From positions 27,844 through 91,843 of the forward strand of contig JADMKE010000021.1 of the NCBI GenBank assembly GCA_018780035.1: a stretch of 64,000 nt of DNA. Reading direction: 5' to 3'. The notes under the pieces are model-generated. The model made no database searches. It was not told where the DNA came from and saw nothing but the letters and a program-made list of their open reading frames with translations. This DNA is from Candidatus Sericytochromatia bacterium (GTDB taxonomy: Bacteria; Cyanobacteriota; Sericytochromatia; UBA7694). A program made the position numbers and the translations under genes. Shown here in pieces: positions 17,592-63,287 of this stretch (the first letter of the stretch is position 1; every line of letters starts with the position of its first letter).

Positions 17592-18062
17592 ATGTTTGAA
17601 AAATATTTTGAACTCTCGCAACTGCCCTCCAAGCTGGCTCCTCTGCGCCAGCAAAACAGCCGTTTGGTCTTGACCAATGGCTGTTTTGATCTCTTACATA
17701 TTGGACATGTGCGCTATTTACAGGCCGCAAAAAAGCAAGGAACTCATTTGATTATTGGGGTAAATACGGACCGATCGGTGAGTGCGATCAAAGGCCCGTC
17801 TCGTCCGCTTAATTCAGAAATGGACAGGGCTGAAGTCTTGGCCGCCTTGGCCTGTACAGATTTTATTACCCTTTTTGACCAAGATACCGCAGATGAGCTG
17901 ATTTCCGTGCTGCACCCCGATCTTTATCTCAAAGCCGGAGACTATAGCTTGGAGACCCTACCAGAGCGAGAAACCCTGCTCAAACTGGGCATAGAAGTGG
18001 CTTTCATGCCTTTTGTCCAAGGGCATTCTACGACCGGACTGATCAGCCGCATGCAAAGCTGA
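17592..18062 (+). CDS. cytidylyltransferase-like nucleotidyltransferase (RfaE domain II / D-beta-D-heptose 1-phosphate adenylyltransferase-like)
   Basis: LVLTNGCFDLLHIGHVRYLQAAK matches the (H/T)xGH nucleotidyltransferase signature and the RfaE-II length. Confidence 0.75.
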   Translation: MFEKYFELSQLPSKLAPLRQQNSRLVLTNGCFDLLHIGHVRYLQAAKKQGTHLIIGVNTDRSVSAIKGPSRPLNSEMDRAEVLAALACTDFITLFDQDTADELISVLHPDLYLKAGDYSLETLPERETLLKLGIEVAFMPFVQGHSTTGLISRMQS

Positions 18063-26200: not shown

Positions 26201-26376
26201 CCGGGTTCGCACTCCAGCGGCAAGCCCGAAAAAAAGGCCTCAAAGGCAGCCAGTCCGCCCGCAGAAGCGCCCAAGCCCACGACAGGAAAAGAAAGCGACA
26301 GAGCAGGGGAAAGATCCATTGGCATAACCCTATCATTTGTTTGAGAGGTCAAGTCAACGATGCCTGATCCTGTCAA
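23254..26376 (-). CDS. chemotaxis methylesterase CheB / methyltransferase CheR fusion with coiled-coil and PAS sensor domains
   Basis: CheB catalytic region (GASAGGLAAFEAFFSGLP...ICIVLSGTGSDGSVGL). CheR SAM motif (IRVWVPACSTGEEAYSLAILLAE). A heptad-like NEEL repeat coiled coil, then two PAS-like segments. The stop abuts the start of the histidine kinase. Confidence 0.9.
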   Translation of the reverse strand: MTGSGIVDLTSQTNDRVMPMDLSPALSLSFPVVGLGASAGGLAAFEAFFSGLPLECEPGMAFVLVQHLAPDHQSLLAELIQKYTQMQVFEVSDGLEIQPNCVYIIPPNCDMALLKGRLQLSEPAAPRGQRLPIDFFFSSLARELHERAICIVLSGTGSDGSVGLRAIKEAGGWVLVQELGSAEYDGMPRSALATGLVDFELLPKEMPERLMAYVEKTFTRLAPILPVQEPKPSQESDTGFLPGSESNSESDPEPGLNTLFSLLSVQTGHDFSQYKLNTLYRRIERRLALHQLKTLDEYVVYAQAEPAEINALFRDLLIGVTHFFRDPEAFLALEKKVIPQLFANLSEQSTIRVWVPACSTGEEAYSLAILLAEQQALSKHNPKVQIFATDIDKSAIATARAGVYPLSNTAGLSAERLARFFSLEPPSAEQEQSSYRIHKTIRDRLIFSEQDLIKDPPFSKLDLISCRNLLIYMGAALQKKIIPLFHYALNPTGYLFLGTSETVGDTEALFSTEDRKEKIYRRKPDSRQRGLTQFVSPALSLDLRFSPVNPQKGSQEKLSLRELTEQALLQNAVPTAALVKKNGDILYLHGRTGSYLEPAQGEAGVNNIIKMAREGLGRDLTLALHKASQHVEIVHCNGLRVKTNGDYTLTDLKVYPLTWGPGEGREETLFLVLLEQAKPAENDHQGLLPQAGDERGARAEAGSGTGSDSGSESRINALKQELQAKEAFLSTINEELETANEELKASNEEMQSMNEELQSTNEELETAKEELQSINEELATINTELQTKVTDLSRVNNDMNNLLAGTGIATVFVDHDLHILRFTPAATRIINLIQSDMGRPVAHIVSNLVGYDQLSQDIQRVLDTLIPVDVEVQSKAGKWFAMHILPYRTLENVIEGAVITFVDIEAAKQAQIALTDTINQTFNAMMATAHQPLLLLSDDLRIRSANAAFGRFFELEPEAIIGQLIFDLEQQEWDIPALRVLFEQYLSQSPICLDYVLSHAFKKIGLRVLSLNARRIVNQTGQVSSILLAIEEILPQKPVV

Positions 26377-26610: not shown

Positions 26611-29106
26611 ATGAAAGCCGTACTCATGGCCGGAGGCTCCGGCACCCGACTCAGACCACTGACCTGCGATCTGCCCAAACCGATGGTGCCGATTGTCAAT
26701 AAACCGATTATCGAACATATTATCGACCTGCTTAAAAAACACAGTTATGACGATATTTATGTCACCCTTTATTATCTGCCCCACCTGATTCAAAATTATT
26801 TGCTCAACGGAGAAGAGCTGGGCGTGCGTGTCAATTACGCCCTCGAAGAGGAGCGCCCCCTGGGCACCGCCGGTTGCGTTAAAAATATCGAACAGCACCT
26901 CGACGACACTTTTTTGGTGATCAGCGGGGACTCCCTGACAGATTTTGATCTGAGCCAAGCCCTGAAGTTTCACAAAGAAAAAGGTTCCAAAGCCACGATT
27001 GTCTTAACCCGCGTTGAAAATCCGCTCGACTATGGCGTGGTCATCACCGACGAAGAGGGCCGGATTCAACGCTTTCTGGAAAAACCCACCAGCAGCGAGG
27101 TGTTTAGCGACACGATCAATACCGGCATTTATGTACTCGAACCCGAATTATTGGCCCTTTTGCCTGCCAACGAAGAGAAAGACTTTTCCAAAGATCTCTT
27201 CCCCTTGATTCTCGAAAAAGGCCTGCCGATGTACGGCTATGTCGCCGAGGGCTATTGGTGTGATATCGGCAATTTGACCACCTACCGCCAGGCCCATTAT
27301 GACGTGCTGGCTGGCAAGGTTCAGGTTGAGATGCCCTACCAACAGAAAGAAAATGGCGTTTGGATTGGTGAAGGTGTCGAAATGGAGAGCTCGGTGAGCC
27401 TCGAAGGCCCCGCCGTGATTGGGCACAATACCTATATCGGCAAAAATGTGCGCATCAGTGCCAATACCGTGCTGGGAGACAATGTGGTGGTTGGCCAAAA
27501 TGCCACACTCAAACGCCCCATTGTCTGGAATGGCGTGCATATCGACCGGGGCGCCTCCCTGCGCGGCTGCACCCTGGGCAAAAATGTGATCGTGCACAAA
27601 GAGGCCCAGATCCTGGAAGGGGCCGTGGTCGGCGACGACTGCTCCCTGGGTGAAAAAACCTTGGTCAAACCCGAAGTGCGCATCTGGCCCAATAAACATC
27701 TCGAACCCAACTCCATTGCCACCGAAAGCATTATCTGGGGGAGCGGTCAGCTCCAGAGTATCTTTGGCGAATTGGGCATTTCGGGCACCGTCAATACAGA
27801 TATTACCCCCGAATTGGCCGTCAAGATGGGGGCCGCTTATGGTGCCACCATTGGCATGGGCAAAAGTATCTCACTCAGTCGGGATCAATCTGCCGCCTCG
27901 CGCCTGTTCAGTCGCGCCTTTGCCTCGGGGGTGCTCTCAGTCGGTGTGCATATCCAAAACCTGGAAGCCTGCGCTTTGCCCGTGGCCCGCATTCAGATCC
28001 CCTCATTGGATGTCGCCGGGGGCGTACATGTGCGCTTGGCTGCAGATACCAGCCGTGAGAAAATCAGCATTGAATTTTTGGACTCATCGGGCCTGAATAT
28101 CTCCCCCCAGAGCGAGAAAAAAATCGAGGCCACTTACCAAAAAGAAGATTTCCGCCGGGCCCGCGTGGTCGAGTTGGGTGAAATTCAATACCCCTCCCGG
28201 ATTATTGAAAAATACCAGGAGGGCTTTGTTAAAACCCTCAGCCGCTTTAAACCCAGCCGCCCGATGAAAGTGGTACTGGACTATATGTTCCAGGCCAGCC
28301 ACGTCATTTTGCCCACCCTCTTGGGCCGCATGGGCATGGATACGGTGGTACTCAACGCCCACGTCGCCGAAGGGGCCCTGCGCAATTACGAAGAGCTGAC
28401 CCTGCAGACCTCCAATGTCGTTCGGGCCCTGAATGCCGACTTTGGTGTGCGCATGGATGCCAATGGCGAGCGCATGACCGTGGTCGACGAAAAGGGCGAG
28501 ACCATTGATCACAATCTGCTGATGGCAGCTTTTGTCAAAATGATGTTACACACCTTTCCAGGTAAAAAAGTGGCTGTCCCTGTGATGGCACCCAGCCTGA
28601 TCGAAGAGGTTGCCGCTCAGTTTGAAGGCCAGGTGATTCGCTCCAAAGCGACCACCCGCTCGTTAATGGAAGCAGCCCAGGAGCCCGATGTGATTCTGGC
28701 GGGCTTTGGCGGCCAATTGATCTTTCCGGCCTTTCATGGCGGCTTTGATGGCATGATGGCCGGAGCCACCCTGGCCACCTTGCTGGCATTGGACAATAAA
28801 AAGCTCTCGGAGGTCATTCAGGATCTGCCCCCGCTGCATATTCTCAGTGATCAACTGACTTGCCCGACCACGGTCAAAGGCACGTTGATGCGCCTGATGC
28901 TCGAAAAATATGGCCAGGAAAATATTTCCACCCTGGATGGCGTCAAACTCTTTGATGCTGAAGGCTGGACCTTGATTCTGCCCGATCCGAGTTATCCCAA
29001 AGTGCATATCTACAGCAATGGTTCGTCTCAGGAGTATTGTCAGACCCAATTGAACAAATACCGCGAAGACGTTCAACAGATGATCACCCACTCCAGTCAG
29101 ACCTAA
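26611..29106 (+). CDS. bifunctional mannose-1-phosphate guanylyltransferase / phosphomannomutase-phosphoglucomutase
   Basis: N-terminal NTP-transferase [18 protein letters not shown] plus left-handed beta-helix repeats. The C-terminal 400 aa has PGM/PMM architecture. Confidence 0.85.
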
Positions 29107-30926: not shown

Positions 30927-32633
30927 ATGCACAGTCTCTCAGCGCATGATACCCTGAGACTCTGTTTGGCTTTGGCTTTGATGCTGGGTCTGGGCCGGAT
31001 TTTTGCAATTTTGAGCCAGCGCTTACAACAGCCCGCTGTCTTGGGGGAGATTGTGGCGGGCGTTGTCTTGGGGCCCACACTGCTGGGCGTGGTTTGGCCA
31101 GAAGCCTTTGGCTTTTTTTTCCCGCGCCAAGGCCCATTGGGACTGGCTTTAAGTGTGTTCACCAGCCTGAGCATTATCCTCTTTCTCTGTGTGGCGGGCA
31201 TGGAAGTGGATCTCAATACCGTTTGGAAACAGGGCAAACGGGCCTTGATTGTCGGCACCGGCGGCATGGTCTTTCCCTTTGTTTTGGGTTGGGGCAGTGT
31301 GTGGCTCTTTCCCAGTCTATTTGCAGCTGGCACCCCCAATTTACAGCTTTTCAGCATCTTTTTTGCCACAGCGCTGTCCATTTCTGCTTTGCCCGTGATC
31401 GCCAAAACCCTGATGGATCTGGCCCTGCTGCGCTCTGATTTGGGGGTGGTGATCATGGCTGCCGCGATTATGAATGATCTAATGGGTTGGATTATTTTTG
31501 CCCTTTTGATGGGGCAAATGCAAAGTGATGGTCACCATACCGCCACCCCCGGTCTGACCACGATTGTGATGATCTTGCTCTTTGCGGGTTTGATGCTCAC
31601 AGCCGGCCGTTGGGTCTTTAACAAGAGCTTGCTTTGGCTTTCGGCCCATACAGAGGGCCCCGGCCCCATTTTAAGTCTGGCAATCTGTGGGGCATTGCTC
31701 GGTGCCGCAGCCACCGAGGCCCTTGGCATTCATCCCATTTTTGGTTCTTTTTTGGTTGGAGTCGCATTGGGCAATTCAGCCCACCTGCTCGAACGCAACC
31801 GCCAAACCCTGGAACATTTTATTTCCTGTATCCTGGCGCCTCTATTTTTTGTCAGTATTGGGCTCAAAGTCAATTTTGTCGCTCATTTTGATTGGAAATT
31901 AACCTTGGTTGTGGTTGTGATTGCCTGTCTGGGCAAAATTGTCGGCTGCAGCCTGGCCGCTTGGTGGAGTGGCATGCAATTGCGGGAATCTTTGGCCGTC
32001 GGCTTTGGGCTGAATGCCCGAGGAGCAATGGAGATCATTCTCGGGCTGCTGGCCTTGGAGTCGGGGCTGATCAAAGAAAATATGTTTGTGGCTTTGGTGA
32101 TTATGGCTTTGCTGACCTCGATGCTCTCAGGGGGAATGATTCGCTGGATTCTGCAACAGCAACGCAAACTCACATTGGCAGATTATTTGGATTCCCGTGC
32201 CATTGTTTACCGCCTTGAAAGTGAAAACCACGAGAGCGCCATTGCGCAGCTCTGTCAACGTTTGGCTCAGATCAGTGGTTTGCCCGTGGCCCCTCTGCAA
32301 TCAGCGGTCTTGGATGAAGAATCGGTATTGTCGACCGGCCTGGGCTACGATATCGCAGTCCCCCACGCGGGGGTCAAAGGTTTGCCAGCTCCCCTGCTCG
32401 CAGTCGGTCTGTCTCCAACAGGTCTGAATTTTAACGCCCCAGATGGTCAAAAAGCCCACCTGATACTGCTTCTGCTCACCCCAGAGGAAGACAAAGTTTT
32501 GCAATTACAGCTCTTTACCGAGATTGGCCAGGTCTTTAACAAAGAAGAAGATCGCCAAGCCTTTTTGAAAATGGACAATTTCACCGAACTCAAGGCCTGG
32601 GTTCGGGGCCGCCTGCACAGCAATGGACATTAA
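30927..32633 (+). CDS. CPA2-family cation:proton antiporter fused to C-terminal PTS EIIA(type 2/Ntr) regulatory domain
   Basis: AAGGGAGA RBS. 12-13 TM Na_H_Exchanger core. The C-terminus DIAVPHAGVKGLPAPLLAVG...HLILLLL is PTS_EIIA_2-like with the phosphorylatable His. Confidence 0.8.
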   Translation: MHSLSAHDTLRLCLALALMLGLGRIFAILSQRLQQPAVLGEIVAGVVLGPTLLGVVWPEAFGFFFPRQGPLGLALSVFTSLSIILFLCVAGMEVDLNTVWKQGKRALIVGTGGMVFPFVLGWGSVWLFPSLFAAGTPNLQLFSIFFATALSISALPVIAKTLMDLALLRSDLGVVIMAAAIMNDLMGWIIFALLMGQMQSDGHHTATPGLTTIVMILLFAGLMLTAGRWVFNKSLLWLSAHTEGPGPILSLAICGALLGAAATEALGIHPIFGSFLVGVALGNSAHLLERNRQTLEHFISCILAPLFFVSIGLKVNFVAHFDWKLTLVVVVIACLGKIVGCSLAAWWSGMQLRESLAVGFGLNARGAMEIILGLLALESGLIKENMFVALVIMALLTSMLSGGMIRWILQQQRKLTLADYLDSRAIVYRLESENHESAIAQLCQRLAQISGLPVAPLQSAVLDEESVLSTGLGYDIAVPHAGVKGLPAPLLAVGLSPTGLNFNAPDGQKAHLILLLLTPEEDKVLQLQLFTEIGQVFNKEEDRQAFLKMDNFTELKAWVRGRLHSNGH

Positions 32634-33158: not shown

Positions 33159-34514
33159 TCAGGGCTGCGGAGCCCCATAGACCACCCAGGTCGCAAAGGT
33201 CTCCGAAATCTTGAGCGAACGGGCCACGTAATTGCCAGGATAGGCCTTGACGTAGCGCAAAAAGGCCTGCAAATCTGTCTCGCCAATCACCATCATCACT
33301 TCAGACAGTGGCAAATTGGCATAAGGACCTTCGGTTGCCGGTGGAATAGCGCTGGCACGGGGCGCGCATTCGCGAATGGAATAAAGCGCCATTTCCATCG
33401 CCTGGGGATCGACAATCATTTTGCTCACGGTATAGCGGCTATTGGCATAACGCGAAAAGTCAAAGAGTGGCTGATCGTAATTATCCGTAAAGTCCACATT
33501 TAATTCATGTAAATCGACAAAGCTGACAGGGGTGTAATTTTGAACCGGTGGTGGAGGCTGTCCGGGCGGATAGGCAGGATCTCCGGGTGCCATAGGCTGC
33601 TGGCCATGCTGATAGGGCAAACTGACTGGGCTTTTGTGCCGCAATTGATCGAGCAAGCCTTTAAAAGCTTGGCCAAACGCCTCTTTGAGCTCTTTTTGAA
33701 CATGCTCTTGAATCTCAAGCACCATATCCGTGTAATAGGTAAGCTTTTGTGCCAGAAATTTGTATTTGGCGAGCAGCAGGCGAACATATTTTGCAATTGG
33801 CCCAAGCAAATCCAAGAGCGAATTACGGGGAATCAGGTGTTCAGGGGTATTGGAACCTGGGTGAACCGGGCGAAAGGTTTGACCTGTTTCTTCATATGGG
33901 GATTCCTCTGAATCTGTGGCAAAGAGCTGGCCTTCCCCCAACATCTGGCGGTAATAGTCCTCAGCCGTTTTGGGTTTGCGCTTGGGACGGGTGGTAGGCG
34001 GGGGCGCGTCATAAGGGTTGTAGTCAGAATGTGGATCCGCATAAGTTTGGTTGGAGCCATAATTCGGGTCGTAATAGCCCTGGTTGGGGTCTGCTGCGTA
34101 CTGCTGGTTGGGGTCATAATTCGGGTCGTAATAACCCTGGTTGGGGTCTGCTGCGTACTGCTGGTTGGGGTCATGGTATGTCTGGGACTGCGCTTGATAA
34201 GCCTGATTTTGGTCGTACATGCCTTCAGGGGCGACATAACCCGAGGCATCTTGCTGGTAATAGGGATTTTGCTGCTGGTGAGTTTGGCGCTGTTTGACCT
34301 CTTGCTGCCGGTCCAATGCCTCATCCGTCAGGGTCAGAGAACTGGTCACACGGTAAGATGTGACCCCTTCTCCCCTGGCACGTCGCTTTTTACGGTTGTT
34401 TTGCTTATCCACCCTTTTATTATAGCTTCTGAATTTACAGGATTTCCAGAAAGCATACAAAAAGGGGGTATACTGAAGCACATTTTTGAGGAGAAATCCC
34501 GATGGACTATGCAC
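33159..34514 (-). CDS. hypothetical protein with Q/N/Y/P-rich low-complexity N-terminal half (true start uncertain, probably internal)
   Basis: DPNQQYAADPNQGYYDPNY is duplicated. The C-terminal 250 aa are globular with no motif I recognise. The longest ORF would share its first 13 nt head-on with the divergent yjbR-like gene (its first codon lies at 34512..34514), so an internal start, for example the Met near 34220, is more likely. Confidence 0.5.
   Translation of the reverse strand: MHSPSGFLLKNVLQYTPFLYAFWKSCKFRSYNKRVDKQNNRKKRRARGEGVTSYRVTSSLTLTDEALDRQQEVKQRQTHQQQNPYYQQDASGYVAPEGMYDQNQAYQAQSQTYHDPNQQYAADPNQGYYDPNYDPNQQYAADPNQGYYDPNYGSNQTYADPHSDYNPYDAPPPTTRPKRKPKTAEDYYRQMLGEGQLFATDSEESPYEETGQTFRPVHPGSNTPEHLIPRNSLLDLLGPIAKYVRLLLAKYKFLAQKLTYYTDMVLEIQEHVQKELKEAFGQAFKGLLDQLRHKSPVSLPYQHGQQPMAPGDPAYPPGQPPPPVQNYTPVSFVDLHELNVDFTDNYDQPLFDFSRYANSRYTVSKMIVDPQAMEMALYSIRECAPRASAIPPATEGPYANLPLSEVMMVIGETDLQAFLRYVKAYPGNYVARSLKISETFATWVVYGAPQP
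34059..34172. repeat. two tandem 57-nt units (one mismatch) inside the Q/N-rich protein gene
   Basis: ataattcgggtcgtaata(g/a)ccctggttggggtctgctgcgtactgctggttggggtc appears twice back to back. Confidence 0.8.
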
Positions 34515-34930: not shown

Positions 34931-36343
34931 ATGAGCAATTTATCTTCTCCTTCCTTTGCAATTGCGATCATGGCCGCAGGCAAAGGCACGCGCATGAAGT
35001 CCGAAACCACCCCCAAAGTCCTACATACCTTGGCCGGCCGCAGCATGATTGGCCATGTTTTACACGCATCAATGGGTCTCGAACCCGAAAAAATTCACGT
35101 GATTGTCGGCCACTGTGCCGAACAGGTGCAAAACTTTGTCGAAACCAATGGCAGCCCAGAATTGCGCTCGCGTCTGGGTTGGGTCGAGCAAAAAGAGCAA
35201 TTGGGCACTGGCCACGCAATCATGCAACTCATGCCCGTACTCGAAAATTTCAAAGGCAGCTTGATGATCGTCAATGGCGATGTGCCCCTGCTGCGCAGCG
35301 AAACCTTGCAATTGCTGCGAGAAACCCACGAAGAGTTGGATTATGCTGCCACACTGCTCACAACCAAAGTCGCAGATCCCACAGGTTATGGCCGAATTGT
35401 CAGGCATCACCAGCAATTTGTTAAAATTGTCGAACACAAAGATGCCAATGCCAAAGAATTGCAAATTCAGGAGATCAACACAGGGGTCTACGTTTTTTCT
35501 TGGCCTGTGCTGCAGCAATACCTGCCCAAACTCAGCAATGCCAATGCCAAAGGCGAATATTATTTGACCGACGTGATCGAAATGCTGGTGCAAGATCGCA
35601 TGCGCATTGGCACAGTCACCGCCGAAAACCCCCTCGAAGTCTTGGGTGTCAACAGCCGCAAAGAATTGGCTGAAATGGAATGTATCTTACACAGGCGCAT
35701 CAACGACCATTGGATGGAAGCGGGGGTGACCCTGCGCGATCCCTCGTCGATTTATATCGATAGCCAGGTTGATTTAGCGGTCGATGTCGAAATTTTGCCA
35801 GGCACGATGCTGCAAGGCCGCACAAAGATTGGTTCAGGATCTCGAATTGGCCCCAATTGCCAGATTCGCAACAGCGCCATTGGTGAAGACTGCGAAATCC
35901 GTTTTTCGGTGATCGAACAAGCCCAAATCAAAGCTGGTGTCCAGATTGGCCCCTATGCCCATTTGCGCCCCGCAACCGTGGTCGAAAAAAATGCCAAAGT
36001 CGGCAATTTTGTGGAACTCAAAAAAGCCCATCTGGGTGAGAATTCCAAAGCCTCCCACCTGAGTTATCTGGGGGATGTCGAAATTGGCAAAAATTGCAAT
36101 ATTGGCGCAGGCACCATTACCTGCAATTACGATGGCGCTCAGAAGCACAAAATCACGATGGAAGAGGGCGTCTTTACAGGCAGCAATAGCACACTTGTGG
36201 CGCCTTTGAATTTTGGCAAAGACGCCTATGTGGCAGCCGGATCGGTGATCACCGAAGACCTGCCTGCAGGCAGTTTGGGCTTGGGCCGAAGCAGACAGGT
36301 CACCAAAGAGGGCTGGTCTGAGAGCCGGCGGCCGCGCAAATGA
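34931..36343 (+). CDS. glmU: bifunctional UDP-N-acetylglucosamine pyrophosphorylase / glucosamine-1-phosphate N-acetyltransferase
   Basis: AIMAAGKGTRMKS N-terminal nucleotidyltransferase, with a C-terminal hexapeptide-repeat acetyltransferase. Confidence 0.95.
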   Translation: MSNLSSPSFAIAIMAAGKGTRMKSETTPKVLHTLAGRSMIGHVLHASMGLEPEKIHVIVGHCAEQVQNFVETNGSPELRSRLGWVEQKEQLGTGHAIMQLMPVLENFKGSLMIVNGDVPLLRSETLQLLRETHEELDYAATLLTTKVADPTGYGRIVRHHQQFVKIVEHKDANAKELQIQEINTGVYVFSWPVLQQYLPKLSNANAKGEYYLTDVIEMLVQDRMRIGTVTAENPLEVLGVNSRKELAEMECILHRRINDHWMEAGVTLRDPSSIYIDSQVDLAVDVEILPGTMLQGRTKIGSGSRIGPNCQIRNSAIGEDCEIRFSVIEQAQIKAGVQIGPYAHLRPATVVEKNAKVGNFVELKKAHLGENSKASHLSYLGDVEIGKNCNIGAGTITCNYDGAQKHKITMEEGVFTGSNSTLVAPLNFGKDAYVAAGSVITEDLPAGSLGLGRSRQVTKEGWSESRRPRK

Positions 36344-41324: not shown

Positions 41325-42683
41325 CTAATCCGTTAAAGACCAAGCCTCTCCGATTTGAATCACCCGCTGCTCTTGTCTCAACTTCAGCAAATGGGCTTGC
41401 AGTGAGCGACGGGCCAGGGGCCAAGCCCGCGAATCGGTATCCACGTAAACCTGTTCGAGCAATGCCCTTTCAGCCAGTGGACCAGAAGCCAAAGCTGCAA
41501 GCACTTTTTCTTCGCGATTGAGGCGGTGCCTATAATACTGCCGACAACTGGCGGAGGGGTCTTGTAAAATCGGTCCATGTGAGGGAATCGCTGAGTGAAG
41601 CTGGGCTGCCTCTAGTTTTTTGAGTGAGTCCAAATACTGCCCCATATCCCCATCTGAGGGATCAATCAAAATTGAGCCAATCCCCGCCAACATGTCTCCG
41701 ACATGGGCCACACGGTGGCGCAGGTCGATCAGACAGAGATGGCCGGGGGCGTGGCCGGGCGTAAACAGGGCCTCAACGTCCCAGCTCTGACCCGTGGCAG
41801 GATCTGCGCCCAATTGCCAGCGAAAGCCATCGGAAATCTCCTGGCTGATTTCCAATTGGCCTGTCAATAGCGCAGAGGTCTGGGCGTGGGCCTGGATGGG
41901 CAGTTCCAATGCCTCACTCAAAGCACGGGCACCGCTGACATGATCGACATGGTGATGCGTCAAAACAATGGCGACAGGCCTATCCCCCCGCGCCTGACGG
42001 GCCGCAATTCGCGCTTGCAGCAAGGCCTGTTCTTCGGGATAGGGCGAAGCCGGATCGACAATCAAAAATTGGGGCCCGCCGATCAGGGCACAATTGGTAT
42101 GGGTGGCAGGCAGCAAAGTGGGCGTACGCAGTGGAATCACCTCAATCCCTGGATGCAGTTCTAAATCGGAATAGAGATGCTCACGATCATTTTCCAGATT
42201 TTTGAGGGCCGAGAGATCCAGCCCCGAGACTGCCAATTCTGCCAAAATCCCACGGATCGGGGGAGGCAGTCGCAATAGCCCCCTTTGCCAGCGTTGCAGC
42301 AAAGCTGCAGGTTCAATCCAAATTGCCTCCGACAACTCCGGGCTCAACACCCCCAGAGGCATGGCTTCGGGCAGTTCATGCAAAAAATAGCGGGTCTCAA
42401 AGCGCTTGGGCGAAAAGGGGGGGGTGACCCGCCAACCCAGGTCATGGATTTTGGCCTGAACATCAATCACTATCCCCACTTCTTCAGCAGTTTCGCGCAG
42501 GGCACAGCTCAAAAAGGACCCCAACTCCGATTCAGGCCCATCTTCGGGATCAAGTTTGCCCCCCGGAAAGGTCCAATGGTCGGGAAAACTGCGCTGATCT
42601 GAGGCCCGCTTGCCAATCAAGACCTGCAAACGGGGCTGCTGTGCAACCAAAATGAGGAGGGCGGCAGGGATAAAATCAGGCAT
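41325..42683 (-). CDS. Nudix hydrolase fused to metallo-beta-lactamase-fold hydrolase
   Basis: Nudix box GGKLDPEDGPESELGSFLSCALRETAEEVG. MBL motif LTHHHVDHVSG. The ATG at 42683 overlaps the kinase stop by 8 nt; an alternative start lies at 42728. Confidence 0.75.
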   Translation of the reverse strand: MPDFIPAALLILVAQQPRLQVLIGKRASDQRSFPDHWTFPGGKLDPEDGPESELGSFLSCALRETAEEVGIVIDVQAKIHDLGWRVTPPFSPKRFETRYFLHELPEAMPLGVLSPELSEAIWIEPAALLQRWQRGLLRLPPPIRGILAELAVSGLDLSALKNLENDREHLYSDLELHPGIEVIPLRTPTLLPATHTNCALIGGPQFLIVDPASPYPEEQALLQARIAARQARGDRPVAIVLTHHHVDHVSGARALSEALELPIQAHAQTSALLTGQLEISQEISDGFRWQLGADPATGQSWDVEALFTPGHAPGHLCLIDLRHRVAHVGDMLAGIGSILIDPSDGDMGQYLDSLKKLEAAQLHSAIPSHGPILQDPSASCRQYYRHRLNREEKVLAALASGPLAERALLEQVYVDTDSRAWPLARRSLQAHLLKLRQEQRVIQIGEAWSLTD

Positions 42684-45024
42684 CCACCGGCAAAGAGGGG
42701 GCCATGAGTTGTACACCACCATTTTCATTAAACTGGGCCAAAAACAGGAAGTAGCCTTTGTTCCAACCCATTTTCACAAAACCCCTTTCGCTTTCACCCA
42801 TGCCAAACAAACCGGGTTTGCCTGTCAATTGATTGAACTTGGCCAAAACGCCCGCAGACAGAGGCTGATAGGCCACCAGCATGGCAGCCTGAATATCGTC
42901 TTGGGCCCGCTCGGTCTTGATCCTGCGAACATCTTCAACCATATTCGAAAGCGTCTCTTCGCTGATCTCGTTTTCAAAGCGAAACAGCGCAGTGAGTTGG
43001 TCCTGATTATTATAGGCCAAAATATCAAAAGTGGCGCTGAAGCTACCCATTTTGACAGGCTGGAGAAATTTGAGCGCTTTAAACTGCCAAGCCCAGGTAA
43101 AACGGCGTTTGAGCGATGAAAACGCCGATGAGCGCGAAAGCCCGTACATAAATTCATACAAGAGCCAATCCACAGCTTTAAAATGATTGGTCTCTTTGAG
43201 AATATCAGAATATTTGATCGTGCGGTTGCCAATTTCAAAGGTCGCATCTTTGGGCAAGATGGTGGTGGTATCGGTATTGCGCAGCGCCTCTTCCATCATT
43301 TCTGAACTGAGTTGTTTTTCTTTGGCTCCGGCATAATGGGCCAAAACAGGGCGGTTGATCGATTTACTCACGATTTGCAACTGGGCTTCAACCAATAATT
43401 TGCGCAAACTCGGTCCGATCAGATTAAAGCGAGGGGCATAAATGCTGAGATCAAAATACTCCCCATCATAATTCCCGGCAGGATAGGGCATCGCGATCGA
43501 AAAGACCTGCTGTCCATCGAGAAAACCCAACCATTTAAGCGTGCGTTTTTCAATCACCTTTAACATGCCACTGAAGCGCTTGGACTTTTGCAATTCAATC
43601 GCTTTGGTCACATCGCCTTTGGAACACATCGGATTGTGCTCCATCAGGGTATGTGCCCCCACCATGATCGCCAGCAACACCAGCCAGGGTTCTTCTTTTT
43701 CCATCGGCATACACTGGGTCATTTCAAACTTCTGCCAAGAGGCCATGTGTTGATAAGCAGCGGGTCCGGATAACTCAGGCTTGTTGACCATGGCACCGAC
43801 GATCAGGCCTTTGTAGATCAAGAGAATCACCGAATTGTTGATGATCAAGCCCTGGCTTTTGCCCTCGTATTTATAAATCGCTTCGAGCATGGTATTGGTG
43901 GTCAGATTTTCGACTTTCCAACCGCGCAAAATGCGCAAGACAGCTGAAAAAGCCGTCGGGTCGTCGATGCCTTCGACCAAATTAAATTCTTTGCTGCGCG
44001 GGGTGGGCGTTCCACTCATGCCCATATTCAGGGTACCCGTACTGAGGGTTGAGGAATTGCCCGTGGACGTGCCTACGCCATATTGGGTGGGTGTATTGTC
44101 GTGATGTTTGACAACATGTTCAATCCCCCGATTGGAATGGCTCAGATCCACGCTGGGCATGGGTGTGCTCTCAAAGCTTGAAGAACCCGTCAACGTTTGC
44201 AAAACGGCCTCTAAATCAGCGGCAAAATCTTTGGCCGTGTCGTAACGCATATCCACGGTTTTGGCCATGGCCTTAAAAATAATCCCATCCAATTCAGCCG
44301 GGATTTGCGGGTTGAGTTCACTCGGACGGGGAGGCTCACTTTGCATGATTTTCATGACAATTTCGCCAATATTGGAGCCGTTATAAGGCAATTGGCCGGT
44401 TAAAATTTCATAAGCGGTCACACCCAAAGAATAGATATCTGCACGTTTGTCGACATCTTTGGGGTTCATCAATTGTTCGGGTGAGATATACAATAAACTG
44501 CCCAAAATCGAACCTGCTTTGGTCAAATCCGACTGGGTAGACTCCAGACGGGCAATCCCAAAATCGGTGAGTTTGGTGGTGCCATTGTCCAAAATGACAA
44601 TATTGGCAGGTTTAATATCGCGGTGAATGATCCCCTGGAAATGGGCAAAGTCCAGCGCGTCACAGGTTTGAATCATCGATTTGATCGCCACAGGCACGGA
44701 AAGAGGTGAGTGAATTTTGAGCAATTGCGCCAGGTTTCGCCCTTGCAAAAACTCCATCACCATATAATAACGGCCTTCATATTCGCCGAAATCAAAAATA
44801 CTGACAATATTGGGATGATTGAGTTTGGCACTGGCTTTGGCCTCACGCTTAAAGCGCTCAATCAATTCGTCTTTGGTCTGTTGCGTCATATTGGGGTCAT
44901 GGGGCAATTCAATCACTTTGATGGCAACATGACGATCCAGACGGGGATCGATGGCATCAAGCACAACACCCATGCCCCCCCGGCCCAGCTCACCCAAAAT
45001 ATCGTATTGTGCTATTTTTTCCAC
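42676..45024 (-). CDS. Ser/Thr protein kinase with large uncharacterised C-terminal domain
   Basis: GELGRGGMGVV...AIKVI...HRDIKPANIVIL...DFGIA are Hanks kinase subdomains. About 480 aa follow with no recognisable motif. Confidence 0.85.
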   Translation of the reverse strand: MEKIAQYDILGELGRGGMGVVLDAIDPRLDRHVAIKVIELPHDPNMTQQTKDELIERFKREAKASAKLNHPNIVSIFDFGEYEGRYYMVMEFLQGRNLAQLLKIHSPLSVPVAIKSMIQTCDALDFAHFQGIIHRDIKPANIVILDNGTTKLTDFGIARLESTQSDLTKAGSILGSLLYISPEQLMNPKDVDKRADIYSLGVTAYEILTGQLPYNGSNIGEIVMKIMQSEPPRPSELNPQIPAELDGIIFKAMAKTVDMRYDTAKDFAADLEAVLQTLTGSSSFESTPMPSVDLSHSNRGIEHVVKHHDNTPTQYGVGTSTGNSSTLSTGTLNMGMSGTPTPRSKEFNLVEGIDDPTAFSAVLRILRGWKVENLTTNTMLEAIYKYEGKSQGLIINNSVILLIYKGLIVGAMVNKPELSGPAAYQHMASWQKFEMTQCMPMEKEEPWLVLLAIMVGAHTLMEHNPMCSKGDVTKAIELQKSKRFSGMLKVIEKRTLKWLGFLDGQQVFSIAMPYPAGNYDGEYFDLSIYAPRFNLIGPSLRKLLVEAQLQIVSKSINRPVLAHYAGAKEKQLSSEMMEEALRNTDTTTILPKDATFEIGNRTIKYSDILKETNHFKAVDWLLYEFMYGLSRSSAFSSLKRRFTWAWQFKALKFLQPVKMGSFSATFDILAYNNQDQLTALFRFENEISEETLSNMVEDVRRIKTERAQDDIQAAMLVAYQPLSAGVLAKFNQLTGKPGLFGMGESERGFVKMGWNKGYFLFLAQFNENGGVQLMAPSLPVDA

Positions 45025-45030
45025 GCTAGA

Positions 45031-47094
45031 TTACTTCCACTGAGTTTCTTGTGTGCCTTTGACCCACTTGGTATCGCGAATTTCGGTAGCCGCACCCGCT
45101 TCGTCTTTCCAACCCAGGACCTCAAAAACCGACACGGTTTCTTCTTTGCCCTTGACTTTCGCATTGCCACAGTGGCGAGCATTGACACGATCTTTGACCA
45201 AATCATAGGTGTTTTGGCTGATCAAAATGCTGGAATTAAACTCTTTATTCAGGCCTTCAAGCCGCGCGGCGGTATTAACAGCATCCCCAATCACGGTATA
45301 GTCCATTTTTTGCGGAGAGCCAAAATTGCCCACCAGGGCTTCTCCCGTATTGATGCCAATGCGGATTTGCAGGGGCACCATGCCTTCAGAAAGCCATTTT
45401 TCGCGCAAATGCGCCAAAGTACGCTGCATTTGAATCGATGTATTTACAGCTTTATAAGCATCGGTTTTGGGATTACTCGACCCCACATTGCCCCAAATCG
45501 CCATAACAGCATCGCCGATGTATTTATCCAAGGTGCCATCATTGCTGAAGACGATTTCACTCATCGCGGTCAGGTATTCATTCAAAATATGCTCGACCTC
45601 ATCGGGTGGCAGGCTTTCAGACATTGAGGTAAAACCAGCAATATCGGAGAAGAGAACGCTGACCATGCGGCGCTCACTTTTGAGGCTGGGCATCGTAGAG
45701 GGATCTTTGAGCAATTCTTCGACCAATTTGGGCGAGACGTACGACTTAAAGAATTTGCGAATGCGCCGTTTTTCCCGCTCTTCAACCAGGTAACGATAGG
45801 CATAACTCACGGTATAACTGCCTACCATCGCCACCATGGGTGCAAACCAATCAATAAACAGGCGTTGAAAATTAAAGAAATAGACATTAAAAACAGAATA
45901 AGCCGCCATTAGACCGATCACCATCGCCAGTCCACCCAGCGGCCCCAAGAACGAAAGTCCCAAAGCAGTCACCACAGCAAAAGCCAGAATTAAAAGATAA
46001 TTCAGACTGCTGGGCGCTTGGATATACGGATTGTCCTGGCGCAGGGTTTCAAAAAGATTGGCGTGGACCTCAACCCCCGGCATTTTGGTTGAACCCGCAG
46101 AGACAAAAGGCGCATTTTTATTGTCTTGCAAAATCTCCGCCGAAGCACCGATCAGGACAATTTTATTTTTAAAAAAGTCTTTGGGGCGTTGTTTGACCAA
46201 TTGCTGAAAGTAATTATCGTCAAAGCCCGGCTGGCCAAGTTTGTGAACAATATAATAAGACAGCGTTTTAAAGCTCTGAGGGGGACCCGCAAAATTGATC
46301 CAAAGGGGTTGATCCGCGTATTTGTCGATCAGGGCATCCGCTTTTTTGGGGTCGAGCTGACGCAGCATGCTCAGGGTAAAATGCGGTTCATACTTTTTTC
46401 GCAGGGTCATGGCCGTCGGCAAAAGCTGTTCTGTTTCCAGATTATAGACAATCTGCGCACGGCGAATCTGATTGTCAACCATCCCTTCATCGACATTGGC
46501 AAAACCAAACTTGGCATCAGACTCAAAGATCGGGGGGCTATAAGAAGCAGATTCAGTGGTATCCACGGATTGTTCATCGTTCCCCCCACTGGCACCTGAG
46601 CCGCTGATCCGAGAGGTCGAGCCAAATTCAAATTTGCTGACAACCACAGTTTTATCGGCATGTTTGGCCAAAGTCTGTTTCAGGGCGGCATCTGCTTCGG
46701 GAAACTGGGAGGGGGTTAAAAACATAATATCAAAGGCAACCAACTTGGCTCCGAGGGCGATCAGTTTCTCGGCGACGCGGGCATGCACATCCCGCCGCCA
46801 GGGATAGGGACCAACTTCTTCGAGAGAGGCTTCGTCCATGGCCAAAATGACCACATCATCGGGGGTGGGGCGCGTGCCCCTGAAGGTTTCAAAGCGGGTA
46901 TTGTAAAGCATCAACTCGACCTGTTTAAAGGTCGGCATTTTTTCATTTGCGGCCAGGAACAGACCGCCCACCAAAAGACCAATTCCCAAATTGATCAAAA
47001 TCCGTTTCCAGAGCATAGACGCATCCTCGCTGCTTAAGCCATTGTTCTCAGCATTGTAACACACCCAAAGTCTCAGCTCTGTGAGCCAGTTCAT
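45031..47094 (-). CDS. CHASE2 sensor domain-containing class III adenylate/guanylate cyclase
   Basis: Periplasmic CHASE2-like region, TM helices, and a C-terminal cyclase homology domain (VLFSDIAGFTSMSE...GDAVMAIWG...GINTGEALVGNFG). The start may be the internal Met at 47016. Confidence 0.85.
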   Translation of the reverse strand: MNWLTELRLWVCYNAENNGLSSEDASMLWKRILINLGIGLLVGGLFLAANEKMPTFKQVELMLYNTRFETFRGTRPTPDDVVILAMDEASLEEVGPYPWRRDVHARVAEKLIALGAKLVAFDIMFLTPSQFPEADAALKQTLAKHADKTVVVSKFEFGSTSRISGSGASGGNDEQSVDTTESASYSPPIFESDAKFGFANVDEGMVDNQIRRAQIVYNLETEQLLPTAMTLRKKYEPHFTLSMLRQLDPKKADALIDKYADQPLWINFAGPPQSFKTLSYYIVHKLGQPGFDDNYFQQLVKQRPKDFFKNKIVLIGASAEILQDNKNAPFVSAGSTKMPGVEVHANLFETLRQDNPYIQAPSSLNYLLILAFAVVTALGLSFLGPLGGLAMVIGLMAAYSVFNVYFFNFQRLFIDWFAPMVAMVGSYTVSYAYRYLVEEREKRRIRKFFKSYVSPKLVEELLKDPSTMPSLKSERRMVSVLFSDIAGFTSMSESLPPDEVEHILNEYLTAMSEIVFSNDGTLDKYIGDAVMAIWGNVGSSNPKTDAYKAVNTSIQMQRTLAHLREKWLSEGMVPLQIRIGINTGEALVGNFGSPQKMDYTVIGDAVNTAARLEGLNKEFNSSILISQNTYDLVKDRVNARHCGNAKVKGKEETVSVFEVLGWKDEAGAATEIRDTKWVKGTQETQWK

Positions 47095-57065: not shown

Positions 57066-59141
57066 ATGAAACTTAAGCAGACAGCAATGTTCGCACTTGC
57101 TGCCACATTTACCGTTTCCGGTCTCACTGTTTTCACCGCTCCGGCCAAAGCCGAAGTGACTTTTGAAAGCATGTTGATGGAAAACGGCGGCGACCTCGAC
57201 AGAACACATTGGGCGTCTAACGCCATCCAAGAACTCGTTGACAAATACAAAGTCATGAGTGGCTTCCCCGACAAAAAATTCCGCGGTTCCAAAACCCTGT
57301 CCCGCTATGAAATGGCTGCAGCTCTGTACCAGGTCATGAAATACGTGGACAGCAGCGTTGCTAACGTTCCCGTACAAAAAATTGACACGAGCAAATTTGC
57401 AACCAAAGAAGACCTGAAACAGATCGCCGCTTTGCAGATGGAGTTCAAAAAAGAACTCGATATGCTCAAAGAAGGCCACATGGAACTGGCCAAGCGTGTT
57501 GACATGCTTGAGCGCGTCCGTGTCCACGGCAAAGTTGAAGTGCGTTACCGCGATCGCGTCTCCGTCACCGATGGTACCGATAAAGCTTCTCCCCTCTTCG
57601 GCGCTGGCAACCAGAACGCAACCAAAGTCGTGGGCGCAGCTCCCGACCTGACCGTTTCTGATCGCCCTGCAACCGATGACAAAACAACCTATACCAACAA
57701 CAATGGCCAAACTTCTCGCGCTGCTGGTCTGCCCAAGACCTTCAACAGCCCTGCAAGTGCCAATGTCACCATTGATGACCTCGTGCCCTTCCGCGTTCGC
57801 AGCAACCTCAGCGTTTCTGCCATGCTGACCGATGGCCTGATGGCTCACACCAGCTTCGACATGTTCGAACTCGGCTCTGCCGGTGGTGTTGCTGTCGGCA
57901 ACGGTGGCCATGACGTCAACGAAGGTGGCGCTGGTGGCGGTGGTTTTGTGTTCCGCAAAGCCTACCTCGCAGCGGGTGGACTTGACGACAAAGACATGGG
58001 TGCCGCATTCAAAGTCGGTCTGATGAACTTCAGCAAAGACTTCAACCCCAACTCTGGCCTGATGAACCACTTCGGCAACAACAATTGGACTGGCCGTGGT
58101 TACGGTCTCGTTGGCTGGGGCGCAGCTGATATTGCTCTGAGCAATGCCAACAGCACCAATCCTTATGTCAACAGCGTGTCCCGTTATTGGGCCGGTGGTC
58201 TGAATTCCTCTATGGTCGACCCCGACAGCCACAACTACAACCAAGCCACTTCTCCCTCCGCCTCTTTTGGCGCTGGCTGGGGCTGGGGCAAGTTCTTCGT
58301 GGGTGCCAACTACGGTTCCGTTCAGACTGATCGTTCCGCAGCTGCTGCAGGCAACCTGAGCAGCGGTGCCGCTGTCAATGGTGCAGACGCCAACTTCAAA
58401 GTTGAGAATGCTGATTCTGCCCTGTTCGCAGGTGCAGTTCTGCAGGGTCTGGATCGCAAAACAGGCACCAACGGCAAACGTCTGGTCGCCAACAACCTGG
58501 CTCTGCCTTCCCAGTATGGTGATGGCTACATGGTTGCAGGTCTCGACCTGAGCTTTTTCAAAGAAGCTTTCCCCGTTCGCCTGAACCTGTCTGCCATGAG
58601 CTACCTGAACGACAATATGCTGGACTTCTCCAAAGCCAGCCGTAAAGAAGTTTCAGGCGTTCTGGATTTGGGCTGGAGCAAAAACTTCGGTCTGACCGTC
58701 GGCGTGAACAAATCCTTCATCGGCTATGATCGTCACTCCATCGGCTTGCTCTTCAACGACCTCGGCGGCAGCGGCTTCGACATCCAATTGGGTGCCAACC
58801 TTGCTACTCGTGGTCTGTTCAACGTAGGTGACCTGGCTTCCGGCAACGCCGGTCTGGCCATTGGTGTCCCCTTCCTGAACATGGGCAAAGGCAAAGACAA
58901 TATCAAATTGGTTCTGGCCGCCCGTCAGTCTCTGGGTGACAGCTTTGGTGGTTCCACCGATGCTGGCGCTCCCAACCAGATGTTCAAAGATTCAGGTTTA
59001 ACTGTTTCTCTGCCCTACATGAACGTAGCCGGCAGCCCCCTGAACATCCGTGCTGAATACAGCATGCTCTTGGCTGATGCTCTGTGGCAGTTCCGCCCCG
59101 TGGCACATGACGTTTCTGTCGTGACCAGCTACATGTTCTAA
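57066..59141 (+). CDS. SLH-domain outer-membrane porin (N-terminal SLH, coiled coil, C-terminal beta-barrel; OmpM/Slp/SomA-like)
   Basis: Signal peptide. SLH motif ...FPDKKFRGSKTLSRYEMAAALYQV. Coiled coil. Gly/Asn/Ser-rich alternating beta-strand region ending ...SYMF (C-terminal Phe). GGAGGA RBS. Confidence 0.8.
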   Translation: MKLKQTAMFALAATFTVSGLTVFTAPAKAEVTFESMLMENGGDLDRTHWASNAIQELVDKYKVMSGFPDKKFRGSKTLSRYEMAAALYQVMKYVDSSVANVPVQKIDTSKFATKEDLKQIAALQMEFKKELDMLKEGHMELAKRVDMLERVRVHGKVEVRYRDRVSVTDGTDKASPLFGAGNQNATKVVGAAPDLTVSDRPATDDKTTYTNNNGQTSRAAGLPKTFNSPASANVTIDDLVPFRVRSNLSVSAMLTDGLMAHTSFDMFELGSAGGVAVGNGGHDVNEGGAGGGGFVFRKAYLAAGGLDDKDMGAAFKVGLMNFSKDFNPNSGLMNHFGNNNWTGRGYGLVGWGAADIALSNANSTNPYVNSVSRYWAGGLNSSMVDPDSHNYNQATSPSASFGAGWGWGKFFVGANYGSVQTDRSAAAAGNLSSGAAVNGADANFKVENADSALFAGAVLQGLDRKTGTNGKRLVANNLALPSQYGDGYMVAGLDLSFFKEAFPVRLNLSAMSYLNDNMLDFSKASRKEVSGVLDLGWSKNFGLTVGVNKSFIGYDRHSIGLLFNDLGGSGFDIQLGANLATRGLFNVGDLASGNAGLAIGVPFLNMGKGKDNIKLVLAARQSLGDSFGGSTDAGAPNQMFKDSGLTVSLPYMNVAGSPLNIRAEYSMLLADALWQFRPVAHDVSVVTSYMF

Positions 59142-59163
59142 ATTTGTCTCACTGAGACACCTG

Positions 59164-59195
59164 AGCCCTCGGCGCAAGCCGGGGGCTTTTGTTTT
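59164..59195 (+). terminator. Rho-independent terminator with GNRA (gcaa) loop after the porin gene
   Basis: AGCCCTCGGCgcaaGCCGGGGGCTtttgtttt. Confidence 0.6.
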
Positions 59196-59291
59196 GAAGG
59201 GCCTTCAGAGAAATTGATCCCGGTCATGCCCGCTCCTGCAAAAATGCGTTACCATGGGTGCAAACTTCAGGAAAAATCGGAGTCACAATCC

Positions 59292-62315: not shown

Positions 62316-63287
62316 TTACATCATGCCCTTTTGTTTGAGAATCACCCGCATCCGCCGTTTATAATCATGTACGGCGGGTTCAGCACTGTTCTCCTCGGCA
62401 AAATTATTAAATGCGACCACAGCAGAATAGACATTGGCTTCCCCATCGGCTTTTTCGACCTCTTCAAACAGGCGTTTTAACTCTTTTTTGGGGTCGGGGG
62501 GGCGAACGCGCTCACGCAAAGCCTCTAATTCTTGGCGCTGTTGGGGGTTGGCTATTTCTTTGAGGTAATTGGCACAGATTGAGACATGGTCCAAGGCTTT
62601 ATAGCGCATATCAAAAAAGCGATTTTGCTCCAAATAGGCCACATGTTCTTCCAGCAGCCCAATCGCCCGGGCATCCCCAGCCGTCTTGGCGGCAGAATAG
62701 TCGACTTTTTTAAAATACTCCGCGTAAATTTGATAGGCTTTTTGCAGCTTGTGGCGCTCAACCTCATTATAATCTGCGGGTTTATTCCGGGCCTCAATCG
62801 CTTTAAGCACCTTCATTAAGGCCTGAATCAACTCTTGCTCCTGCTGCAAATCCGCTAATTTGGCGTCGCGCTGCACCTTCATCTCTTCACCGGGATTGTT
62901 ATACGCCATATAAATCGAAGAGTGAATGCTGTTAAAGGTGATATTGACAATAAAATATTCGCCCTTACGCAGGGCTTCTTGGATGGTTTGTTGATTGCGT
63001 TTGATTTCGGTTTCTATCAATTGGGTCGTCATTTGATCCAAAGAACGCTGCATGACCTCAAAGCGATGAAATTGCTGGGGCGTCATCATGGCGTGGTAAA
63101 GGCTAAAAAACGACTCCCCTTCGCCCGTGGCCTCAGAGAGGCGACGGGTGATTTCACCCAAGTTAATTTCTGAACGCATATATTGGTCGCAATAATACCC
63201 AAACTCTACGCATTTATGTGAGAAACTGTCTAAAAATTCCTCAACATAATTTGGATTAAAGCTATCAGCGCTAAATTCAGCCGTCAT
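62316..63287 (-). CDS. hypothetical protein
   Basis: 323-aa ORF. Helical, with no recognised motif. Confidence 0.45.
   Translation of the reverse strand: MTAEFSADSFNPNYVEEFLDSFSHKCVEFGYYCDQYMRSEINLGEITRRLSEATGEGESFFSLYHAMMTPQQFHRFEVMQRSLDQMTTQLIETEIKRNQQTIQEALRKGEYFIVNITFNSIHSSIYMAYNNPGEEMKVQRDAKLADLQQEQELIQALMKVLKAIEARNKPADYNEVERHKLQKAYQIYAEYFKKVDYSAAKTAGDARAIGLLEEHVAYLEQNRFFDMRYKALDHVSICANYLKEIANPQQRQELEALRERVRPPDPKKELKRLFEEVEKADGEANVYSAVVAFNNFAEENSAEPAVHDYKRRMRVILKQKGMM

Follow-up and report, generated by a model that had tools for sequence, protein, structure and literature searches.

The 64-kb stretch of DNA analysed here (from contig JADMKE010000021.1 of a Candidatus Sericytochromatia bacterium, hereafter the window) carries at 57066-59141 (+) a gene that starts with ATG and encodes a 691-aa protein combining an S-layer homology (SLH) domain, a coiled-coil stalk and a predicted C-terminal outer-membrane beta-barrel. 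Our analysis indicates, with a probability of about 0.78, that this porin is an OmpM-like outer-membrane tether and channel of a bacterium from the Sericytochromatia (Blackallbacteria). This interpretation is based on the domain order, the predicted fold, the homology of the N-terminal part with OmpM1, SlpA and SomB, the conservation of the residues involved in ligand binding, the lineage and the purifying selection acting on the gene. The protein is an uncharacterised OmpM-like protein whose barrel is unclassified and larger than that of OmpM1. The gene itself is real, since 55 full-length homologues were retrieved and since its comparison with the related locus L006 revealed 59 synonymous but only 17 non-synonymous codon differences, a pattern indicating purifying selection.

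Organism and domain architecture

The window is colinear over 17 kb with the related loci L003 and L006 (92% nucleotide identity), and the Blackallbacteria CG genomes display the same gene order at 74% nucleotide identity. Since the 17-kb colinearity at 92% involves several independently assembled metagenome-assembled genomes (MAGs), the organism can be considered as settled. The MAGs that carry the nine loci encoding close relatives of the porin bear the label Candidatus Sericytochromatia or Blackallbacteria, in addition to one called "Cyanobacteria bacterium UBA7694"; according to the NCBI taxonomy, Sericytochromatia belong to the Cyanobacteriota/Melainabacteria group of Bacillati. The initial annotation of this DNA, made from its letters alone, had suggested a less-studied lineage distinct from classical cyanobacteria, which the colinearity with Sericytochromatia/Blackallbacteria MAGs bears out. 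The near-absence of HIP1 (GCGATCGC) that it had put forward also holds (one occurrence for 0.97 expected in the window), and the proteobacterial origin that it had named as the opposite outcome does not fit a locus whose relatives are all found in the MAGs mentioned above. Among the two housekeeping genes that it had located in the window, mutS is present (7332-9896, minus strand), whereas no open reading frame (ORF) of at least 150 aa matched the Obg family and a scan for the motif G.PN.GKS was empty.

The order SLH domain, coiled coil and barrel ending in Phe, already recognised in the initial annotation, was confirmed for each part of the protein. The SLH domain matches Pfam PF00395 over residues 43-84 (29.3 bits for a gathering cutoff of 20.8), and the family, as aligned for 30 homologues, shows no variation at W49, G74, R80 and E82. 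The profile built from these 30 homologues matches the chains 8bym, 8bys and 8bz2 of Veillonella parvula OmpM1 (E values from 1e-13 to 1e-17, 9.5e-17 for 8bym) and Deinococcus radiodurans SlpA (7zgx, E value 8e-15, positions 7-275), these matches being confined to the SLH domain and the stalk. For the stalk, an a/d heptad pattern spans L117 to L148, and the AlphaFold2 (AF2) model shows a single helix from residue 114 to residue 149. Comparison of the full-length profile with SomB-type porins gave an hhalign probability of 99.8%, limited to residues 38-322 and at 30% identity. These alignments show that the N-terminal module is common to cyanobacterial, Negativicute and Deinococcus tethers.

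The AF2 monomer model (30-sequence alignment, pLDDT 73.9, pTM 0.69) displays 20 long amphipathic strands, which follow the stalk helix and extend up to residue 690. As the best superpositions were obtained on 18-stranded channels, the strand count is given as 18-20. The largest insertions found among homologues map to the predicted long loops (168-241, 416-487 and 624-639). The C-terminus reads …SYMF, and Y689 and F691 are invariant in the 30 homologues. These features make it highly improbable, more so than any other alternative considered here, that the protein is anchored to the wall as a surface or S-layer protein instead of forming an integral outer-membrane barrel. Such a view could draw on public databases, where the family is named only "S-layer homology domain-containing protein" or "hypothetical protein", and on the fact that the barrel predictors or the curation of a published survey (see below) did not accept the counterpart of this porin as a barrel. 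However, besides the modelled amphipathic strands and the invariant Y-x-F, the protein has one SLH domain and not three in tandem, and the mature protein has the Gly/Ala/Ser/Asn-rich, cysteine-free composition that is typical of outer-membrane proteins.

The 55 full-length homologues range from 98% down to 32% identity, and all those that are named belong to the non-photosynthetic lineages Sericytochromatia and Blackallbacteria. The only further matches of this search were cyanobacterial SLH-OprB porins, aligned by their N-terminus alone. A barrel-only profile (residues 150-691 of eight diverse members), searched against 1.84 billion representative proteins, retrieved 22 clusters at E≤1e-3, including 11 at E≤1e-30. 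All nine full-length matches that were scanned have an N-terminal SLH domain and none has an OprB domain. As SLH had already been annotated in the remaining family members during the homologue search, the fusion of the SLH domain with this barrel is obligate. The barrel had no Pfam match in a scan of the whole protein at E≤1 (PF04966/OprB included), and its profile found nothing credible among PDB sequences, a match to Glr2806 at an E value of 0.059 being taken as chance. At the sequence level, the barrel thus defines a new family, small, restricted to this lineage and devoid of any curated model.

Alternatively, the porin could belong to the SomA/SomB family of cyanobacteria (SLH plus OprB barrel, NF033921), named "iron uptake porin". 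Indeed, NF033921 is its best NCBIfam match (67.5 bits), its similarity with SomB-type proteins is the one given above, OprB is the top Foldseek match and some weak barrel relatives bear the name "iron uptake porin". However, the NF033921 match covers only the SLH and stalk positions of the profile (9-110 of 485) and remains under the cutoff of 100 bits, PF04966 is not matched, and no resemblance to SomB/OprB-type proteins was seen with the barrel-only profile (hhalign probability of 0.07%). Membership in this family is therefore very unlikely. A related observation concerns five other proteins (P0087, P0090, P0097, P0102 and P0106), which pass the NF033921 cutoff without having an OprB barrel, the match being confined to the SLH and coiled-coil part of the profile (positions 2-111 or so, extending at most to 182, of 485); one protein of this kind bears the name "iron uptake porin, partial [Bacteroidota bacterium]". 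The NF033921 name can thus be triggered by an SLH domain and a stalk alone, which creates a risk of annotation transfer.

Proposed envelope tethering and channel function

OmpM proteins are defined by the association of an SLH domain with a beta-barrel porin, and this type of architecture is the main tether throughout diderm Terrabacteria, the characterised cyanobacterial copy looking like an SLH domain transferred to another porin (Witwinowski et al., bioRxiv 10.1101/2021.05.31.446380). The architecture is therefore not limited to a few diderm lineages, as the initial annotation had assumed, and its wide occurrence in Terrabacteria means that, as a marker, it indicates only a Terrabacteria-type envelope. 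Unlike this overall architecture, the barrel family of the window porin is lineage-restricted. For Blackallbacteria CG13, the survey lists two adjacent genes as OmpM (PIW48746.1 and PIW48745.1), CsaB (PIW46716.1) and 11 SLH proteins, and reports OmpA, Pal, Lpp and LolA as absent (Witwinowski et al., 10.1101/2021.05.31.446380). The pattern that the initial annotation had proposed to look for in the genome, i.e., csaB present and lpp, ompA and pal absent, is thus already published for a syntenic relative; in the window itself, none of csaB, pal, lpp and ompA was found among the 47 scanned ORFs, and csaB, pal and ompA are missing from all those of at least 150 aa.

The CG13 counterpart of the window porin is PIW50349.1 (P0004), which is syntenic and 88% identical and, from this similarity and gene order, very likely its ortholog. 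A point that emerges here for the first time is that PIW50349.1 appears in the survey among the SLH proteins only and not as an OmpM. This omission reflects the barrel predictors and the curation of the survey and not the failure of a biological criterion. Since this SLH-barrel family is recognised neither by barrel predictors nor by Pfam or NCBIfam, the counts of OmpM paralogues in these lineages are likely underestimates.

The following scheme can be proposed by analogy with OmpM1 (PMC10628300). The porin would be exported by Sec, and its C-terminal domain (about 540 residues) would form a large beta-barrel channel inserted by the BAM machinery, the Y-x-F motif acting as the beta-signal. Three chains would join through the coiled coil of about 36 residues, thereby placing three single SLH domains at the far end of a periplasmic stalk. 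This trio would bind the cell wall non-covalently, while the barrel would act as a diffusion or uptake pore. Since CsaB is encoded in the genome of a relative, the likeliest ligand is a pyruvylated secondary cell-wall polymer (SCWP) made with this enzyme. In V. parvula OmpM1, W34, G58 and TRYE 63-66 are SCWP-binding motifs that contact the SCWP sugars and the pyruvate ketal (PMC10628300). They align with W49, G74 and SRYE 79-82 of the window porin, and it is from these conserved motifs that we infer binding of a pyruvylated polymer. Trimerisation and pore function are inferred by analogy with OmpM1, and most of the tethering load may be borne either by this porin or by its paralogues.

Several points weigh against such a role. 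The survey assigns OmpM to PIW48745.1 and PIW48746.1 and not to the counterpart of the window porin; the latter may therefore act as an accessory channel, with the main tethering role falling to other proteins. In addition, csaB was not found in the 64-kb window. The AF2 monomer model is moderately confident, with a pLDDT below 65 in the SLH region and an uncertain strand number. Homologues also differ by indels at residues 305-310 and 359-368, two turns predicted to be periplasmic, where the topology is uncertain. Furthermore, the known structures that it resembles most are 18-stranded channels, monomeric and substrate-specific, and not trimeric general porins. Finally, the lineage has no cultured member.

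Some of these points would also suit a protein that is mainly a substrate-specific uptake channel and is only incidentally anchored to the wall, the bulk of the tethering being ensured by OmpM paralogues (the counterparts of PIW48745.1 and PIW48746.1). We consider this alternative as rather unlikely, although several data favour it: (i) the two other OmpM genes and the 11 SLH proteins listed for CG13, (ii) strictly invariant polar motifs located outside the predicted strands or at their ends (GH..E 281-286, VDP 384-386, P481, DGY 486-488 and RK 526-527), (iii) inserts rich in Met and His in some homologues, and (iv) the presence of two diverged paralogues of the family within single MAGs (69% and 38% identity in JACYMC01, 69% and 40% for HEY98…/MEZ03…). 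However, it is compatible with a tethering function, as OmpM1 has both roles (PMC10628300). Moreover, the SLH domain and the stalk are conserved to the same degree as the barrel, indicating that anchoring is under selection. The gene neighbourhood of the family, conserved among close relatives only, gives no clue to a substrate.

The inserts just mentioned deserve a separate description. They are found at the position corresponding to residues 305-310 in P0014, P0021, P0023, P0027 and P0028 (for example MGMMGMDGMDEKTMMMMHHHMDPMTMDMMSMQHD), are Met-rich and resemble Cu(I)- or metal-binding Met motifs; those of P0014, P0021 and P0023 also hold several His, and the window protein lacks them. Concerning paralogues, a search with the N-terminal 122 residues gave six matches, mostly short fragments, and did not reveal the other Blackallbacteria OmpM paralogues. 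Tandem pairs of SLH-porin genes similar to PIW48745/PIW48746 were sought around distant family members and weak barrel relatives, and none was found there.

An SLH-tethered envelope has already been published for Blackallbacteria/Sericytochromatia, and its finding in the window was therefore expected. Taken as an OmpM-like tether and channel, the window porin provides, from an independent genome fragment, a confirmation of the Terrabacteria-type SLH tether in the non-photosynthetic sister class of cyanobacteria. It is in line with the ancestral status that has been proposed for OmpM-type tethering within this half of the bacterial tree, and these findings do not overturn current views.

Expression signals, leader RNA and other genes of the window

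From its sequence context (Table 1), the porin gene is predicted to stand alone, between a promoter and a strong terminator of its own and with a long, structured leader. Both promoter hexamers are unchanged across five loci, including the CG Blackallbacteria locus that is only 74% identical, and the Shine-Dalgarno (SD) sequence is present in all eight aligned leaders, its position being shifted by 1-2 nt. Two other reading frames were considered and rejected. The antisense ORF 57039-58244 (-) is a by-product of the porin frame, as it has no homologue support and the substitutions fit the plus-strand frame. A small leader ORF stops after seven codons in the window, while L010 has a called 59-aa ORF at this place.

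Table 1. Position of the features of the porin gene and of its product in the window
Feature	Coordinates	Strand	Characteristics and basis
Promoter, sigma-70-like (predicted)	56749..56778	+	TTGACA-18-TATAGT; 11/12 consensus positions in a consensus scan; about 290 nt 5' of ATG
Leader hairpin, about 95 nt	56918..57015	+	Alignments, per-lineage minimum free energy (MFE) folds, covariance model; candidate cis-regulatory or stabilising RNA
Shine-Dalgarno sequence	57050..57055	+	GGAGGA, 10-15 nt 5' of ATG; read from sequence
Signal peptide, residues 1-29	57066..57152	+	MKLKQTAMFALAATFTVSGLTVFTAPAKA followed by E (…TAPAKA/E), cleavage after AKA; Sec-type, read from sequence
Single SLH domain, residues 43-99	57192..57362	+	Pfam PF00395, alignment to 8bz2; contains W49, G74 and S-R-Y-E 79-82
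Coiled-coil stalk, residues 114-149 (about 36 residues)	57405..57512	+	Heptad pattern, AF2 helix, homology to OmpM1/SomB-type stalks
Outer-membrane beta-barrel (predicted), residues 151-691 (about 540 aa)	57516..59138	+	About 18-20 strands; long loops 168-241 and 416-487; C-terminal Y-x-F
Intrinsic terminator	59163..59198	+	11-bp stem (8 G-C pairs) then T-rich tail; 22 nt past the stop; terminator scan

The leader (56779-57065, about 285 nt) is conserved far better than the adjoining coding DNA. It includes an imperfect hairpin of about 95 nt, whose apex consists of an invariant stem UGGAG/CUCCA and a 12-nt loop, GAAACNCGGNNA. The core TGGAGGAAACNCGGNNACTCCA is kept even where the identity of the orthologous proteins is only 62-70%, the L007 copy differing at a few positions. 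According to the MFE folds, it caps the hairpin in every lineage, even if the sequences of the arms differ. The hairpin was detected at the window, L004, L005, L008, L010, L017-L019 and L022. The covariance model R1 scores 123 bits in the window and gives one match per orthologous locus, but finds no copy upstream of the distant paralogues. Pairing is observed in 92% of cells, while shuffled controls give 76% and slid partners no more than 47%, and 15 of the 28 pairs show compensatory changes, in an alignment that is fitted to the model and includes only about five independent lineages. No Rfam family matched the whole window at gathering thresholds, nor the leader at E≤1.

An exact scan of a metagenome collection for the 22-mer core gave six matches. 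Four of them lie 90-115 nt upstream of genes of the porin family and a fifth one precedes a truncated ORF whose beginning resembles a signal peptide and an SLH domain, while the remaining one is probably due to chance. At L021:156-261 (-), a variant of the apical motif, GGAAACTCC, precedes by about 65 nt a truncated ORF that begins with MKKLLITLLAALVVCGAFAQDTSFPDIP, which reads as a signal peptide and then an SLH-like start. The hairpin may therefore serve other SLH-protein genes as well. The arms of the hairpin contain an SD-like GGAGG and a complementary anti-SD-like CUCC. The hairpin could be a stabilising 5' structure, by analogy with those of other mRNAs for abundant outer-membrane proteins, or a protein- or RNA-binding regulatory site; in either case it is a candidate RNA for further study. 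A second, near-palindromic stretch of the leader, 56822-56887 (+), folds as an MFE hairpin that includes the conserved GGGAACAAA and gives a reverse-strand self-match in nhmmer.

A broader proposal, which should be seen as tentative, is that the Sericytochromatia possess a lineage-specific SLH-tethered channel, built on an unclassified large barrel of about 18-20 strands that the OmpM survey missed, whose expression would be governed by a new class of cis-regulatory RNA marked by the hairpin loop given above and specific to envelope genes in the non-photosynthetic relatives of cyanobacteria.

Elsewhere in the window, envelope-glycan genes are scattered at 510-2228, 12561-14009, 17592-18062 and 34931-36343 and encode a GT2 glycosyltransferase, a Wzy_C/O-antigen-ligase-like protein, a cytidylyltransferase and a GlmU-like protein; they are consistent with a diderm or glycan-decorated envelope. 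The 1040-aa product of 23254-26376 (-) fuses a CheB methylesterase, a CheR methyltransferase, a coiled coil and PAS domains, and its gene immediately precedes one for a PAS hybrid histidine kinase/response regulator (21217-23253, -). Two other fusions are unusual: an 831-aa protein (26611-29106, +) joins a nucleotidyl transferase, a hexapeptide domain and a phosphoglucomutase/phosphomannomutase, and a Na+/H+ exchanger (30927-32633, +) carries a C-terminal PTS EIIA-2 domain. At 42676-47094 (-), a Ser/Thr protein kinase with a C-terminal DUF7527 adjoins a CHASE2-adenylate/guanylate cyclase and is followed, on the opposite strand, by a gene for a 972-aa protein with a weak Peptidase_Mx1 match (47225-50143). 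Four ORFs of 323-451 aa had no Pfam match (16320-17486, 33159-34514, 53043-54137 and 62316-63287), the last two being conserved in Blackallbacteria loci, in the region common to the related loci.

Comparison with known systems

The window porin shares features with several known systems without being identical to any of them. Classical S-layer proteins have three tandem SLH repeats and a non-membrane C-terminus, compared to a single SLH domain and a predicted barrel here. The 18-stranded channels of the Occ/OprD type (OpdQ 3T24, OccD2 3SY9 and ChiP 7VTZ) and the Campylobacter major outer-membrane protein MOMP (5LDT) come from Proteobacteria, lack both SLH domain and stalk and are only 9-14% identical, so that the likeness concerns the fold class only. 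SlpA/Slp from Deinococcus-Thermus (7ZGX/7ZGY) has the same order of SLH domain, coiled coil and outer-membrane barrel, but its chain is much longer (1167 aa compared to 691 aa). It has a 30-stranded barrel, twice the size of that of the window porin, and a much longer coiled coil.

The SomA/SomB-type porins, from the sister lineage, are the closest relatives of the SLH and coiled-coil module. However, they have a PF04966/OprB barrel that is missing in the window porin and that its barrel-only profile does not resemble, and those recovered in this work measure about 515-680 aa. Cyanobacterial SLH-OprB proteins were reported to bind a pyruvylated SCWP (PMC10628300; 10.1101/2021.05.31.446380).

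The window porin can also be compared with OmpM of diderm Firmicutes (V. parvula OmpM1, 8BYM/8BYS/8BZ2, and Selenomonas Mep45). The barrel of OmpM1 has 16 strands and about 300 residues in a 435-aa chain, and it shows no sequence similarity to that of the window porin, which is predicted to be larger (Table 1). The Negativicute-specific Tyr36 of OmpM1 corresponds to Ser51 in the window porin. Likewise, while the ligand of OmpM1 is a polyamine-modified peptidoglycan, that expected for the window porin from its conserved motifs would be a pyruvylated polymer.

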